Source of the DNA: Minisyncoccota bacterium
Lineage (GTDB): Bacteria > Patescibacteriota > Minisyncoccia > Phycocordibacterales > UBA918
Direction: 5' to 3'
Assembly (NCBI GenBank): GCA_022841645.1
Contig: JALHRC010000003.1
Coordinates: 6,553-70,552, forward strand
DNA: 64,000 nucleotides
The first letter of the stretch is position 1; each line of letters opens with the position of its first letter. Below the pieces are notes generated by a model. That model had not been told where the DNA came from, ran no database searches, and worked only from the letters and a program-made list of their open reading frames with translations. Below are positions 26,834 through 55,151 of this stretch, piece after piece. A program made the position numbers and the translations under genes.

Positions 26834-29524
26834 TTATATTTCGCTTAATAATACATCAACCATACGGATTGCTTCCTGCGACAAGTCTGGGGCCAATAGT
26901 CCACTGTCTCTGTAGGATATGACGAGGAGACGGAAGGCAGTAAGCACATTACGCTCCTGAAGGCGAGCAAAAGTAGGCTGGAGGGACCGTCGTTGTCGAT
27001 TGTATTCACCTAATCTCAGCGTACTAACAAGTCTATTCTTTTCTAGTGTCGGCAAGGTAAGGGTATTTACGAACGCCAGCGCGACAGGATAGGTCACTAC
27101 CACCCCGTTAGTGTTGTAGTGGCGATCAGTGACGCCATTTCCATCATAATCTACCGAAAGTACCACTGGCGACAGACCGGGGGAGATCGCGGCTATTACC
27201 ACGGTGTTGGTGGCCGAGGGAACCCCCGAAAAAGTTTGCCGCTTTTTAAGTTCATTACCTTCGTGTAGTTCAATATCAAGCGTAAATGAACCTTGGGCGT
27301 AACCACGGAGCTCAAGGATGATATCAGGTATGTCGGCCGGTAATGATATGTACTGCAATTCACCAAAACGACGATAAGTAGCATTTGGGATGTCGACAGT
27401 AGAACTACTCACCTCACCTTCACTAGTTACAATCGACAAATCTAGTGGGGAGTGGAGCTGGAAAGTAAGGCGTGAAAATCCTGTAAAATCAGGTTGTGTT
27501 TTGGTGAGGTAATTGTATGTTTCATCAAAACTAGCACTATTAATAGTATTTTCTACGAAACTTATAAGGTCGACCACTTCAAGAATATTTGAATGCTTTC
27601 TGTTTGGTGCATTGTCGTCGTTATACTCAAAGAGATTCAACCACCATCTCTCGACATTATTACCAGTTAATGCAAGTGCACTCGGAGTAACTACTGTCTC
27701 GTCGCCATCGATCACTGTTCGTATTTGAGGCCGGACCTCCCATAGGTACTGAATACAAGTGCCAGAAATAAACTTCGCGCAAACTCGTACTGTAGTGTAC
27801 GTAATTTTAGCCGGTGTCGATAGTCCTACCCCAGCAATTTGGTAGACTTCTAATGTCTGCGGTGGCTGCCAAGCAGCTTGTTTTTCTTCAATTTCCCGTG
27901 CATAGGCCAAAAGCTCATCGTTTAATAGCTGCGGTGTAACCAGGTCTTGGTCTAGTGCCCGAGAACGACCACTGCTGCTACCAAGAAAACGATGGAGAGT
28001 AGATCGGTCAGTAATGTCACCGTAGTCGTCACGCCAGGCAGTGGTAGATGCTCCTGCCTCAAAGTCTATAACCGGAGTGGAAACGCTGCCACCCTGACCA
28101 TCAAAATATTCCTGATTAGGAAGTAAATGATACCCCATTGGCATGTTAGTGAGGAGCCGGCGTGACATTTCTTCATCGAGTACAAAACCGAGACCAAGAT
28201 CAGTGCCGTGAAGAAGAGATATTAGAGCTTCCGGCGTCCCCACCTGTGGTACGGCAACAAGAATCAGATTATCAATCTTGGCAAGCAGCGGATCATTCGC
28301 TTCTTCAAGTTCAATCAAAAACTGCTTTGCCACCAATCCCCCGTTTGAATGTGCCACCAGGGTTACCTTGCTTGAGAGCGATGTGGATGCTAAAGCGGCC
28401 AAGGTTTTATAGAGATGTTGCTCGCGGAGCGGCAAGTCTCGCCGCGACAATAGTTGGTCAGTGGTGGCTGCGCGCCATGATAGCAATGTGTCCGATAACT
28501 TGAGGCGCCAATCGTACGGCACAATAGCGTAATCAGCGATTATACCTTCACCTCGCCAGTCATCAAGCGAATTGACGAAGGATTTATAGTAATTAAGTGT
28601 GTAGGCTTCGTCCACGAGTCCCCGCCGCCCGACATACGTGTACAGAGGGTTAATTGATTCTCCCGCACTGCTCATCGACATTCGTGCCTGGAAACATTCG
28701 TTGCTATCTACCCAAACTTCGTGTTCTTCCCCATCGGCTGCGCAGGCGTTGGTTACCTCAAACAACCGCGACCCCATTACGCCTGGCAAAAACAGCACAC
28801 TCGACGCACCGGTCGGCGAGGGCTCTTCGGGCGCCAAAGTGAAAGTAAGCGTAGTTACCCTGTTTGGTAGGTGCCCATGAGCGTGAGCAGTAGCGACAAG
28901 CCACTCCCACCAAGGCCGTCTATGCTCGACGTTGTAAATCATCGATTCAACAACAACCATTGTGTAGGTGCCAGCAAGTAGTGGCGGTTGAGGGTGGGTG
29001 AGGCTGTAGAGGTAATCGAGTAAATCGCCATAGCGGTTGGAACTTTCTTCGTCGTCAGGAAACGGCTCACTGTCATTGTTAAGAAAGGCTTCAATGTACG
29101 GAGTAACATCAATTTCTGGCGGAAAAAAGTCGTCTGCAGCAGCGCGGTATTCGGCTTCGGTGTAGGATGGTGGATTCAGCGAAACATAGGTGTAGCTGTT
29201 ACCATCATGTCGGTACACATGGGGCTCAGCAAATGAGTAGGTGGTGTCACTATCGAACTGAAATGCTGTCGTCCCCAACGGAGGAATGAGTACCGTGGCG
29301 CCCTCTTCAACCACCGTTCCCTCAATGCGCAAAACGCCGGGCACCCCTTCATCGGTCACGCCAAACGGATTTTGGCAGTCGGTAATTGGATAGGTGAAAA
29401 TAGCATCTGCGCTAAGGTGGAATTGTGGACCTGTGATAGTGCCACACCCCTCTGCGTGGACGTACGAAACTGGTCCTACAAAAATGAGGAAGATGAGAAC
29501 CGCGACGAAGCGCCAGGTGCTCAT
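26834..29524 (-). CDS. Large exported alpha/beta hydrolase (LCAT/lipase-like)
   Basis: Signal peptide (VHA-E), FLPGVMGS, PYDWR, AHSNGG nucleophile elbow, PQVGTP, DGDETV. Confidence 0.8.
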   Translation of the reverse strand: MSTWRFVAVLIFLIFVGPVSYVHAEGCGTITGPQFHLSADAIFTYPITDCQNPFGVTDEGVPGVLRIEGTVVEEGATVLIPPLGTTAFQFDSDTTYSFAEPHVYRHDGNSYTYVSLNPPSYTEAEYRAAADDFFPPEIDVTPYIEAFLNNDSEPFPDDEESSNRYGDLLDYLYSLTHPQPPLLAGTYTMVVVESMIYNVEHRRPWWEWLVATAHAHGHLPNRVTTLTFTLAPEEPSPTGASSVLFLPGVMGSRLFEVTNACAADGEEHEVWVDSNECFQARMSMSSAGESINPLYTYVGRRGLVDEAYTLNYYKSFVNSLDDWRGEGIIADYAIVPYDWRLKLSDTLLSWRAATTDQLLSRRDLPLREQHLYKTLAALASTSLSSKVTLVAHSNGGLVAKQFLIELEEANDPLLAKIDNLILVAVPQVGTPEALISLLHGTDLGLGFVLDEEMSRRLLTNMPMGYHLLPNQEYFDGQGGSVSTPVIDFEAGASTTAWRDDYGDITDRSTLHRFLGSSSGRSRALDQDLVTPQLLNDELLAYAREIEEKQAAWQPPQTLEVYQIAGVGLSTPAKITYTTVRVCAKFISGTCIQYLWEVRPQIRTVIDGDETVVTPSALALTGNNVERWWLNLFEYNDDNAPNRKHSNILEVVDLISFVENTINSASFDETYNYLTKTQPDFTGFSRLTFQLHSPLDLSIVTSEGEVSSSTVDIPNATYRRFGELQYISLPADIPDIILELRGYAQGSFTLDIELHEGNELKKRQTFSGVPSATNTVVIAAISPGLSPVVLSVDYDGNGVTDRHYNTNGVVVTYPVALAFVNTLTLPTLEKNRLVSTLRLGEYNRQRRSLQPTFARLQERNVLTAFRLLVISYRDSGLLAPDLSQEAIRMVDVLLSEI

Positions 29525-29851: not shown

Positions 29852-30023
29852 CGGTGCAGGACTTGACCCAGAATCACGGATTTTTATTTCGTCTGCGACT
29901 CATAAAAATGCTCGTGTTCTTGGTCGGCCCCTCGCGTAGGTTGCTCCTTAGTGGTCGCAACCTACATGCGCCGGGGCTTCAAGTCCTGACACAACGCCCG
30001 CAGGGGCGTTGTTCACCACGCAC
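29852..30023 (-). mobile_element. tRNA-end-associated structured mini-element (outer, at tRNA-Val)
   Basis: Direct copy of the tRNA-Val 3' end, 111-nt core homologous to 45230-45339, inverted copy split by a 25-nt hairpin; mobility is inferred. Confidence 0.7.
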
Positions 30024-30030
30024 CGTCGTC

Positions 30031-30184
30031 GCTATGCTCCTCAAGTGGGGTCAAGTTTCTAATTCGCTACGCTTATAAGAACTTGCTCCCCTGGCTCGCC
30101 TGTTTTCTGCTGTAGGGACGGAGCAGAAAACATGGCTCCGCCTCGCACTCGAGCCCGCACGCAAAACTGTTTGCGTGCTATACC
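30031..30184 (-). mobile_element. tRNA-end-associated structured mini-element (inner, at tRNA-Val)
   Basis: Core homologous to 51047-51145; inverted copy of the tRNA 3' flank split by a 25-nt hairpin; mobility is inferred. Confidence 0.65.
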
Positions 30185-30223
30185 AAAAAACAATACCCAC
30201 TAGGGGGTATTGTTTTTTGGTAT
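30180..30223 (-). terminator. Terminator hairpin after tRNA-Val
   Basis: ATACCAAAAAACAATACCC...GGGTATTGTTTTTTGGTAT. Confidence 0.7.
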
Positions 30224-30230
30224 GCTCAAG

Positions 30231-30303
30231 TGCGCGGTGCAGGACTTGAACCTACGACCCCCACAATGTCAATGTGGTGCTCTACCAGCTGAGCTAACCG
30301 CGC
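30231..30303 (-). tRNA. tRNA-Val(GAC)
   Basis: GCGCGGT...CCACA-TTGACAT-TGTGG...GTAGG-TTCAAGT-CCTGC-ACCGCGCA. Confidence 0.95.
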
Positions 30304-30545
30304 GTGAGTCGAAAGATGGTACCACGCGCCACAAAAATGTGAAATGCAGGTTTTGCTCGGGGGGCTTTTTTGAAGGTAAACCGCTGTTTTTTGGTGGCGG
30401 CGTAACCGTTCCGGGCTAAATGAGAATTAGTGAATTGTTCCAAAATTGCACCGGGTACTCTAGCGGGGAGGTGGTTTGTAGCCACGAGTAGGCAACTTTC
30501 ATGGCTTCAAATAAGTCTTATTTACAAACTGTGCATGAGAGCTAA

Positions 30546-31632
30546 TGCACAAGTTCACAAACATTTGAGACTCCTTAGCAATAAGGAAACCATGAGAATA
30601 CGGAGCACGTTGAGAGGAGTGAAGGGGTTTGTGGTGGCGTGGGAGCGTCTGGTACGGTTCCGCTATATGATTAGCGACAAAGCCAAGGAACGGTGCCGGA
30701 TCCTCGCCTTCTGGGAACGACATGGTCTTGACGCCACGAGAGAAGCCTTCGGTGTCTCGCGGGCCACACTCTTCCGCTGGCAACAAGCGCTCCAAAAGAG
30801 ACAAGGGAAACTAGAAGGACTGAATGCCAAGAGCACGGCTCCGAGGCGAAGGCGACAGCGCACCATTCCTGACGCGGTCCGGAACCTCATCTTGAGCGAA
30901 CGCCTCATGGATCCTCGCCTCGGCAAAGACAAGCTGGCTCAGTTAATCAAAGACGACGGCCTCGGCACGTATAGTGCCTCGACCGTGGGGCGGATGCTTA
31001 AGGATCTGCAGCGACAGGGGGTACTCCCTGATCCACGACCGCTGTCCTTTCATGGGAAGACCGGCAGACACCACGAGAAGCACCAGTCATACAAGCCCAA
31101 GCAGCGCAGCACGCACCACGAAGGTGCCCTGGCGAAAGCCGATACGGTGGTGCGGTTTATCGATGGTCTAAAACGATACATCGTCACCGGTATCGATACT
31201 GAGACCAAGTTCGCGTTTGCCTATGCCTATCCGAGCCACTCGTCAGCGGCCGCCGCCGACTTCATGCGTCTCTTTAAAGCGGTGGCACCCGTCTCCATCA
31301 CCCACGTGCAGACTGACAACGGTTCGGAGTTCGCCTGTCACTTCGAAGCCACCTTGGGTGCATATGGGATAACTCACTTCCATACGTACCCGCGCTCTCC
31401 TAAACAGAATGCCGAGATCGAACGCTTTAACCGCACCCTCTGGGAAGCCTTTGCTCGGTACCGCAAGACCACCCTGGCTCATGACCTCTCGGCCTTTAAT
31501 CGAGAGCTGATGGAGTGGCTCCTCTGGTACAACACGAGGCGACCCCACCAGACGCTTGGCCAAGTATCACCGCTAGGGTACATTGTGTCGACGTTATCAG
31601 AGGTGGAGTCTCAAAGGTGCTGGACGAGTACA
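30546..31632 (+). mobile_element. IS481-family insertion sequence (1087 bp)
   Basis: Imperfect terminal IRs sharing TTTGAGACTCC (30546-30574 / 31605-31632); flanks AGCTAA / AGCTAT. Confidence 0.75.
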
Positions 31633-31641
31633 AGCTATTGA
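30592..31641 (+). CDS. DDE transposase with integrase core (IS481-like)
   Basis: HTH (GVSRATLFRW), ADTVV, QTDNGSEF, KQNAEIERFNRT, YNTRRPHQTL. Confidence 0.9.
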   Translation: MRIRSTLRGVKGFVVAWERLVRFRYMISDKAKERCRILAFWERHGLDATREAFGVSRATLFRWQQALQKRQGKLEGLNAKSTAPRRRRQRTIPDAVRNLILSERLMDPRLGKDKLAQLIKDDGLGTYSASTVGRMLKDLQRQGVLPDPRPLSFHGKTGRHHEKHQSYKPKQRSTHHEGALAKADTVVRFIDGLKRYIVTGIDTETKFAFAYAYPSHSSAAAADFMRLFKAVAPVSITHVQTDNGSEFACHFEATLGAYGITHFHTYPRSPKQNAEIERFNRTLWEAFARYRKTTLAHDLSAFNRELMEWLLWYNTRRPHQTLGQVSPLGYIVSTLSEVESQRCWTSTSY

Positions 31642-45211: not shown

Positions 45212-45387
45212 GGAAGCGGAGAGATTTGACCCAGAATCGCGGCTCTTTTACTTCGCTACGCTTGTAAAAGTGACTCGCGTTCTCGGTCGACACCTCGCGT
45301 GTTTTACTCTTTGACGTCGCAAAACACAAGCTCCGGTGCTTCAAATCCCTACGTACCGTGCGCAGGCACGGTACTCCGCTTCCGCGA
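45212..45387 (-). mobile_element. tRNA-end-associated structured mini-element at tRNA-Ser
   Basis: 17/18 direct copy of the tRNA 3' end, 110-nt core, inverted copy split by a 25-nt hairpin; mobility is inferred. Confidence 0.72.
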
Positions 45388-45426
45388 ACAAAATATGCGT
45401 CCACAAGGGACGCTATTTTGTACTCG

Positions 45427-45513
45427 CGGAAGCGGAGGGATTTGAACCCTCGATAGAGTTTCCCCTATGCCGGTTTTCGAAACCGGTACCTTCAACCACT
45501 CAGCCACGCTTCC
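45427..45513 (-). tRNA. tRNA-Ser(CGA)
   Basis: GGAAGCG acceptor, CCGGT-TTCGAAA-ACCGG, long variable arm, GAGGG-TTCAAAT-CCCTC, G discriminator. Confidence 0.93.
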
Positions 45514-51043: not shown

Positions 51044-51335
51044 TGTGGTCACGAGTTACTAATTCGCTACGCTCATAAGTACTCTCGACCCCGGCTCGGC
51101 CGTTTTAGCTTTAGGAAAAAGCTGAAAACATGCCTGCGGCCGTCACCGCGACACGTCAGCGACATTAGTCGCTCTTGTGGTCACCAGTCACTAAGCGTAT
51201 TTGTTCACTACGTTCCAAATCCGCTAAGTGCTGTCGACCCCGCCTCGCGGTTTCCGCCGCTTTGACGGCGACGGAAACATCGCTGCGGCCGTCACACGAG
51301 CCGAAACTGAAAGCTTTCAGTTTCTAAAACGAAAC
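51044..51335 (-). mobile_element. Two tandem structured mini-elements behind tRNA-Glu
   Basis: Two related units GTGGTCAC...CGACCC...CTGCGGCCGTCAC; inverted tRNA-end copy split by a 25-nt hairpin (51301-51325); mobility is inferred. Confidence 0.68.
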
Positions 51336-51376
51336 AGCCTTCTTTGGATGAAGAAGGCGGTTTCGTTTTTGTCGTG

Positions 51377-54855: not shown

Positions 54856-55151
54856 GGCACCGGTCACAAGTCACTAACTATAATTGGCCGCTACGCTCCA
54901 ATTCTAGTAAGTGCTCGCGACCCGTGAAAAGCAATATTGAATTGCTTTTCACCGCGGCCCGTTTGTCCCCAAAGACAAACGGGCAACGCTGCGGCCGGCA
55001 GTGCCTGCTATTTCAGCTTGCTTCGCCGCAGAAATGCAGGTACTGCCTCTTACAGAGGCAGTCCACTCATTGGTCTTTTTGCTTCGTGGGAAGCTTGCAA
55101 AAATACTCAATGAGTCCGCCGTGCCCTCGCTGCGTCGCTCACTGCGCTCAA
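54856..55151 (-). mobile_element. Stacked structured elements behind ftsZ, including a synonymously recoded copy of the ftsZ 3' end
   Basis: 55008-55046 encodes [12 protein letters not shown]; core 54862-54996 homologous to the tRNA-Glu units; mobility is inferred. Confidence 0.72.

Follow-up and report, generated by a model that had tools for sequence, protein, structure and literature searches.

Behind the tRNA genes of Patescibacteria lies a family of non-coding elements, 100–200 nt long, that is real, mobile, matched to its targets, and apparently undescribed. Its members were recognized in a window of 64,000 nt (by which we mean the whole stretch of DNA that was analysed) from a host genome of 1.12 Mb with 43 tRNAs, at least 15 of which carry a related element as counted by eye. 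The reading that we prefer, with a probability of about one half, is that of a non-autonomous element that would move as single-stranded DNA and use its arm as a DNA guide in cis, with a logic like that of the IS200/IS605 elements and without membership of that group.

Elements of the window and anatomy of the unit

The elements are read on the minus (tRNA) strand, on which the order of parts is as follows: the tRNA up to TTC, the left junction, the rebuilt tRNA 3' end, hairpin H1, the distal antisense arm, hairpin H2, the 11-nt antisense piece, stem P3, stem P4 ending in C, the right junction, and the displaced original tRNA 3' end. The features of the window are listed here, with junctions marked by a slash.

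30430–31641, plus strand: IS481-type transposase reading frame, divergent from tRNA-Val (rve_3, E 8.8e-16)
30230–30303, minus strand: tRNA-Val(GAC), target; type-1 junction C56/A57 at 30248/30247, type-2 junction C72/A73 at 30232/30231
30033–30231, minus strand: Val unit 2 (type 2, junction C72/A73), nested in the 5' part of unit 1
30180–30223, minus strand: Val unit 2, terminator-like H1
30156–30179, minus strand: Val unit 2, H2
30144–30155, minus strand: Val unit 2, antisense piece
30093–30142, minus strand: Val unit 2, P3
30047–30091, minus strand: Val unit 2, P4
30033–30046, minus strand: Val unit 2, displaced copy
30014–30023, minus strand: Val unit 1, distal antisense arm to the 3' strand of the acceptor stem, one mismatch
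29989–30013, minus strand: Val unit 1, H2, 25 nt, splitting the arm 8 nt from the junction
29978–29988, minus strand: Val unit 1, 11-nt antisense piece, candidate guide, 11/11 match to tRNA-Val positions 54–64
29927–29977, minus strand: Val unit 1, core stem P3, GNA/GA internal loop
29865–29925, minus strand: Val unit 1, core stem P4, C-GNA-G triloop; its final base is the right junction
29852–29864, minus strand: original 3' end of tRNA-Val after displacement, a direct copy that begins at position 57 and retains 13 nt
45426–45513, minus strand: tRNA-Ser(CGA), target; junction 45444/45443
45228–45425, minus strand: Ser unit
45388–45421, minus strand: Ser unit, H1
45376–45387, minus strand: Ser unit, distal arm
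45351–45375, minus strand: Ser unit, H2
45340–45350, minus strand: Ser unit, 11-nt antisense piece, 11/11 match
45290–45339, minus strand: Ser unit, P3
45228–45288, minus strand: Ser unit, P4
45212–45227, minus strand: displaced original tRNA-Ser 3' end, direct copy of 16 nt, one mismatch
51047–51375, minus strand: two further type-2 members behind tRNA-Glu(TTC), right ends 51179 and 51047
51302–51325, minus strand: H2 of the tRNA-Glu(TTC) members
51291–51301, minus strand: antisense piece of the tRNA-Glu(TTC) members
54862–55151, minus strand: modules of related type after the stop codon of ftsZ, enclosing a nested sub-element; right end 54862

The sequence-only reading had described one element at tRNA-Val and tRNA-Ser with arms suited to each, and its geometry holds: the 15-mer at 29852–29866 equals tRNA-Val 30235–30249 letter for letter, the 111-nt core occupies 29867–29977, the inverted copy is broken after 11 nt by the 25-nt hairpin, the tRNA-Ser element follows an identical plan with Ser-specific arms, and the stem covariations claimed between the two cores (GTAGGTT/AACCTAC against GTGTTTT/AAAACAC, and TTTTTA/TAAAAA against CTTTTA/TAAAAG) are present in the alignments, in which 86 of 113 aligned nt of the Val and Ser cores are identical. 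Chance is excluded because the expectation of the 15-mer match is about 7e-6 and because both loci fold far better than shuffles (z = -8.9 for the Val element at 29852–30023, as DNA on the tRNA strand, and -10.5 for the Ser locus). The right junction of Val unit 1 falls at 29865/29864, and therefore the displaced copy is 13 nt long and the last 2 nt of the 15-nt match are the end of the element. The 11-nt antisense piece consists of 8 nt right of the junction and 3 nt left of it, the unit also takes in the rebuilt tRNA 3' end and H1, and a second related element lies nested between Val unit 1 and tRNA-Val. Rfam at gathering score finds five tRNAs and nothing else over the window. Among the protein genes nearby, one at 26834–29524 encodes a large secreted lipase-like protein with an LCAT domain, related to another in the host genome (C15:33399–35525) with a similar N-terminus.

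Unit boundaries were taken from exact 187-nt tandem units at one locus (L033) and from tandems of 2–3 copies at L210, L216, and L222. Type-1 units start in the T-loop, at C56/R57, and end with the last C of P4; type-2 units, such as the one nested in Val unit 1 and the pair behind tRNA-Glu, start at C72/A73, and the scan for them was noisy (29 candidates, of which 14 were without a parsed right end, 6 were read as type-1 arms, and 9 were kept). H2 measures 25 nt and sits at +8 in 40 of 51 scorable cases, and the duplicated tRNA end is 13–30 nt long, the direct copy breaking most often at +4 to +10 (33/89) or lasting to the end of the tRNA (34/89). The arm has two folds available, pairing with the upstream tRNA end as at the Ser locus or with the downstream copy as at the Val locus, and in copies at L169 and L173 the distal arm is missing and just the 8-nt part of the antisense piece is left. 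Inside the P4 loop of several units there is a sub-element, about 95 nt long, that ends in a short hairpin (host genome C4:65590–65690, C4:4090–4200, and C8:33160–33260; window about 54990–55130), a placement that suggests movement of its own. Elsewhere in the host genome (C7:43870–44700), a tRNA missed by ARAGORN contains an intron-like insert of about 380 nt and has behind it a tandem of elements of several subtypes, whose arms all match the interrupted tRNA.

Target matching, spread, and mobility

Of 151 genomes from the host's order, 98 match a covariance model built from 15 copies and 53 do not; of 151 genomes drawn from the whole phylum only 4 match, two of which belong to the host's order. 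A strict subtype pattern finds 12 loci in records of Kaiserbacteria, Nomurabacteria, Parcubacteria, and Saccharibacteria. Four patterns give 0 matches in viral contigs, and the INPHARED phages and PLSDB plasmids hold no match. Further copies lie behind tRNA or tmRNA fragments and behind protein genes, including ftsZ and genes that we take, from their ends, to be rpsI, rpoD, rplB, and clpP. At L029, the 3' end of an rplB-like gene is apparently extended before the element, and a shorter old ending follows it.

From 358 matches, we sampled 30 loci of the order-wide search and 60 regions around high-scoring matches, which together with the window and one locus of the host's own genome gave 122 model matches, 120 of them distinct. 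An upstream tRNA with a TTC loop accompanies 93, of which 89 are in T-loop register and 4 were dropped as type 2 or misaligned. When the 11-mer is compared with its cognate tRNA in these 89, 67 match perfectly, 15 have a single mismatch, 6 have two, and 1 has three; with permuted targets the number of perfect matches averages 3.8 and is at most 12 in 10,000 permutations, and the mean match is 8.06/11. About 5 of the 89 are also in the training set of the model, which scores pairing to the downstream copy and not to the tRNA; a target-blind version of the comparison gives 70/120 against 3.1, and loci from metagenomes give 16/20, with one further match unparsed. The mismatches (12 G–T, 7 A–C, and 11 other) are not mainly wobble pairs. 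Arms thus follow the adjacent target at 35 tRNA types in 36 genomes, as the two loci of the window had led the earlier reading to propose; neither arms unrelated to their neighbours nor a scaffold lacking covariation was what we found.

The tracking has finer detail. Seven rows concern tRNAs with the rare TCC loop, 4 of which bear an element, and in 4/4 the arm has GGA instead of GAA, although at L111 GGA stands opposite a TTC loop; these bases lie left of the junction, outside the duplicated unit. Type-2 units track tRNA positions 70–72. The 8-nt piece is kept at 0.88–0.99 per position, compared with 0.78–0.96 for the direct copy, and the distal arm is perfect in 33/89. Among the 27 copies for which no TTC-loop tRNA was called are some at tmRNA ends, at TCC-loop tRNAs, at contig ends, and at the far ends of islands, and in the one island case checked (L126) the arm matches a tRNA 2.8 kb upstream. 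Islands at L126, L071, L075, and L098, and on host contigs C26 and C30, cross over near tRNA positions 68–73 and push the element kilobases downstream; one has a large serine recombinase adjacent to the tRNA, and their far ends carry common hairpin-rich motifs.

All of this tracking is equally expected if arms are copied from the target at insertion, and these data cannot separate guide from copying. In such target copying, the main rival and in our judgment a rather doubtful possibility, H2 and the core alone would be mobile, the target end would be duplicated by repair synthesis, and the inverted arm would arise from fold-back (template-switch) synthesis at a terminator hairpin, leaving arms that are scars and not guides. 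Copying accounts for automatic retargeting and for the tracking of TCC loops, and several details agree with it: the duplicated stretch takes in the terminator hairpin at L004, L018, L033, and L038, 7 nt of locus-private sequence recur at the 5' end of Val unit 2, hairpins show paired changes between near-identical copies, and protein genes, too, have copies behind them. The fixed place of H2 inside the arm (40/51) would, however, need two extra switches, the 11-mer is better kept than the other copies, 8 of 9 other clear type-2 units repeat only 2–5 nt after the right end, and H1 looks common to units at different tRNAs (L052, L111). We prefer the guide reading because the 11-mer is the better kept and because the place of H2 is fixed.

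The sequences themselves show the family to be mobile, through empty and filled orthologous sites together with exact tandems. At tRNA-Ser, locus L166 is empty and L173 is filled, and the sequence that follows the copy in the latter aligns gap-free over 160 nt to the trailer of the empty site, so that the downstream copy is the original tRNA end. Within the same genus, tRNA-Ser(CGA) is filled in 6/10 cases and tRNA-Val(GAC) in about 9/24, as judged by eye and with subtypes other than those of the window. Cores appear to have been swapped between loci: over the 89 elements, cores from one genome share an identity of 0.63, cores from different genomes at a common tRNA 0.56, and all other pairs 0.54, the nearest core neighbour sits at another tRNA in 80/89, and core pairs that are 97% and 93% identical are located at different tRNAs. 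Since H1, H2, and the core do not always travel together, modules are also shuffled. Contigs from four sequencing runs of one study, possibly the one from which this DNA came, contained no empty site or circle junction, a result that does not count as evidence.

That cores of one genome (0.63) resemble each other more than do those found at one tRNA in several genomes (0.56) would also suit a resident, non-mobile structure, serving termination, tRNA 3' processing, or as a decoy against islands, that was spread by gene conversion and perfected by quasi-palindrome correction; crossovers of serine-recombinase islands do fall close to these tRNA ends, and the element is displaced by them (L126). 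We hold this to be very improbable, given that orthologous tRNAs within one genus are empty, filled, or filled with another subtype, that tandem and nested copies exist, and that 53/151 genomes of the order are without a match. With respect to the sequence-only reading, which had seen a programmable guide or an att-site design rather than an ordinary MITE, the rejection of a MITE with fixed terminal repeats stands, as arms follow the adjacent target and the scaffold covaries; the att-like part is borne out by the empty and filled pair, whereas the arm is a candidate guide, arm copying as a by-product predicting the tracking equally well.

Folding and the search for an enzyme

In an alignment of 15 copies, 34 of 53 pairs change on both sides, 88.8% of cells pair, no shuffle of 500 reaches any of the covariation measures, and slid registers drop to 35–49%. 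The structure was drawn from the same 15 sequences, and most P4 columns were preset by the search pattern and are therefore uninformative, but H2 (8/9 pairs) and the base of P3 covary although they lie outside that pattern. Among 5,525 stem cells of an alignment fitted to the model, G–T pairs number 153 and A–C pairs 52. Triloops of the form C-GNA-G are stable in DNA rather than in RNA. On the tRNA strand there are 170 GNA triloops closed by two pairs, against 41 on the other strand and 76 in shuffles (maximum 96); GNRA loops number 56 against 23 and UUCG loops 2 against 10. As far as loop counts in sequence can tell, these statistics point to folding as single-stranded DNA of the tRNA strand, rather than to an RNA guide.

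An RNA guide, in which read-through transcripts would act like a bridge RNA or as a template for reverse transcription, is accordingly quite improbable to us. It draws on elements that are always co-oriented behind highly expressed genes, on an RNA fold that is itself well below shuffles (z = -7.8, with -8.5 for DNA of the other strand), on the excess of GNRA loops (56 vs 23), and on the resemblance of an 11-nt target-matched stretch in a conserved scaffold to the IS110 bridge RNA (PMC11208160). Against these stand the dominance of GNA triloops and the near-absence of UUCG (2), the terminator-like hairpin that precedes the arm, and the lack of an IS110 recombinase match in the host genome, whose sole reverse transcriptase is DGR-like. 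Moreover, CCA follows the direct copy in only 4/50 cases, compared with 20/120 background tRNAs, and because it is not enriched there the mature tRNA was not the template.

No cognate gene was found among neighbour proteins (84 of 208 scanned) or with profiles across genomes, and 0 of 122 model matches contain a reading frame; the neighbours are mostly housekeeping or cargo genes. The IS481-type frame beside tRNA-Val is treated as a bystander, with no rve match among the 84 neighbour proteins of other copies, which likewise include no Y1 protein. Over 151 genomes, whose lack of independence limits the comparison, Y1 is weakly associated with the element (70/28/25/28, odds ratio 2.8); 28 of the 98 element-bearing genomes are without a Y1 match, and the association may reflect a general load of mobile DNA. 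RAYT or Y1 proteins were rejected as cognates, since nine Y1 genes (in 8 of 20 fetched regions, plus the pair at L124) are flanked by unrelated repeats of their own; the host has a RAYT-type Y1 gene of 222 aa at C15:32500–33350 with its own 19-nt palindromes on the flanks. Large serine recombinases are unassociated over 151 genomes (odds ratio 0.74, p 0.46), and their islands displace the element. GIY-YIG proteins, found in 149/151 genomes with a count correlation of rho 0.30, lie beside only 4 loci, and six genomes with at least 4 elements have at most one match. The IS110 DEDD recombinase (PF02371) has no match in the host genome, with a control that matched 6/14, and none among the neighbours. 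The Y2 transposase of IS91 has no host match either, a result of little weight as its control matched 0/14. The host's only reverse transcriptase was discarded as DGR-like by its neighbourhood.

Several gene arrangements met in this search deserve a record of their own. A layout of reverse transcriptase gene, template-like repeat, and 203-aa target gene at host C11:26588–29041 is that of a diversity-generating retroelement. Small GIY-YIG genes at L064:1750–2300 and L068:1660–2060 have an intact tRNA on one side and, upstream on the other, a copy of the 5' end of that tRNA split by a 20–50-nt hairpin; the split copy is here beside a nuclease and at the tRNA end opposite to that used by the present family. 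Reading frames of about 220–235 aa, HTH-bearing and LAGLIDADG-like, stand directly upstream of tRNAs at L048, L094, L115, L079, and L106.

The outcome for recombinases bears on a further explanation, an unlikely one in our view, in which the element is a folded single-stranded attP for a tyrosine recombinase (the host Xer or an island integrase), similar to that of CTX-phi: the arm and the direct copy would anneal into a duplex att site, and recombination would then join this site and the tRNA gene. The inverted and direct copies do fold into one stem, CTX-phi uses two opposed dif-like sites about 90 nt apart (PMC3089051), crossovers in the T-loop and at the 3' end are known island sites (PMC4383910), and the host genome has one Xer-like gene. 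Yet no integrase stands beside the copies among the 84 neighbour proteins, the direct copy, which is half of the proposed attP, decays faster than the arm, and there is no fixed recombinase-binding sequence, because the arms change with 35 tRNAs and gene ends.

Proposed mechanism and place among known systems

Returning to the single-stranded, cis-guided element, we advance, tentatively and as a possibility, a fuller form of the same reading: a natural, DNA-guided, self-retargeting insertion of Paceibacterales, with a folded strand of about 150 nt whose 11-nt arm would program a putative enzyme acting in trans to place it at any gene end that matches, with that end rebuilt in the process, as a counterpart in DNA to a bridge RNA. 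The unit does rebuild the tRNA end on its 5' side, with the original end pushed downstream. The element would move as the folded single strand of tRNA sense; each junction would follow a helix-terminal C on its 3' side, with the right junction set by stem P4 and the left by the 11-nt antisense piece, which would pair with 3 nt on the 5' side and 8 nt on the 3' side of the cut. H2 and P3 may serve as protein-binding hairpins at a fixed distance, and a putative trans-acting nuclease or transposase, for which HUH-like chemistry is a guess, would cut out a single-stranded circle and bring it in at sites with which the 11-mer is able to pair. Because unrelated tRNAs already match at about 8 of 11 positions, retargeting needs just 2–4 changes; these might come from correction templated by a hairpin and from capture of the neighbouring tRNA end.

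Bacterial MITEs are short, non-coding, multi-copy, and rich in hairpins. The element shares all four properties, but its inverted arms are copies of the target and not fixed terminal repeats, 97%-identical cores have different arms, and the duplication is 13–30 nt of tRNA end. In IS608 (PMC6006769, PMC5934647), small single-stranded hairpins form the ends, cut sites are set by base pairing with a guide inside the element, a change of guide retargets the element, and an engineered extension of 8–13 nt works. By its proposed logic, the element would resemble IS200/IS605 (IS608) and REP/RAYT in its small single-stranded hairpins and guide-set cuts; it differs in a match of 11 nt that varies per copy and spans both sides of the junction, with no fixed tetranucleotide guide or target, in a unit that replaces the target 3' end, so duplicating the tRNA end, and in the absence of a linked tnpA/Y1.

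With the tRNA and tmRNA islands of Islander, which use T-loop and T/acceptor-junction sites (PMC4383910), it shares a gene that is split and restored, a displaced 3' fragment in direct orientation, and tandem arrays; unlike them, it is 100–200 nt long, has no integrase, carries an extra, hairpin-split inverted copy, and serves 35 tRNA types and protein-gene ends with one scaffold. As in the CTX-phi attP(+) and integron attC (PMC3089051), two target-like copies in opposite orientation anneal with each other in one strand and enclose a structured loop, but in contrast to the CTX-phi type of IMEX there is no dif-like or fixed recombinase site, the targets are tRNA, tmRNA, and gene ends, and the arms are rewritten per target. 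Finally, a conserved scaffold, target-covarying stretches, and an 11-nt target recall the IS110 bridge RNA (PMC11208160), whereas the element has no DEDD recombinase, an antisense piece that covers one strand continuously, and signs of DNA folding. The family is thus outside IS200/IS605, integrase islands, IMEX, IS110, and MITEs, being island-like in outcome and IS608-like in logic. Titles and opening lines of abstracts in the open literature, a body mostly exclusive of subscription papers, do not describe it, and CPR supplements may mention it.

A large part of the non-coding DNA that follows tRNA genes in the host's order, and that has gone unannotated, is explained by the element, in which a short stretch of the element's DNA may serve as an address label that can be rewritten. 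Should the arm be a guide, we would have a natural insertion programmed by 11 nt of DNA, until now shown solely through engineered IS608, with an enzyme that would make a compact candidate for programmable insertion; should the arms be no more than copies, the family would represent an undescribed and harmless way for a selfish element to enter the essential, single-copy tRNAs of reduced genomes.
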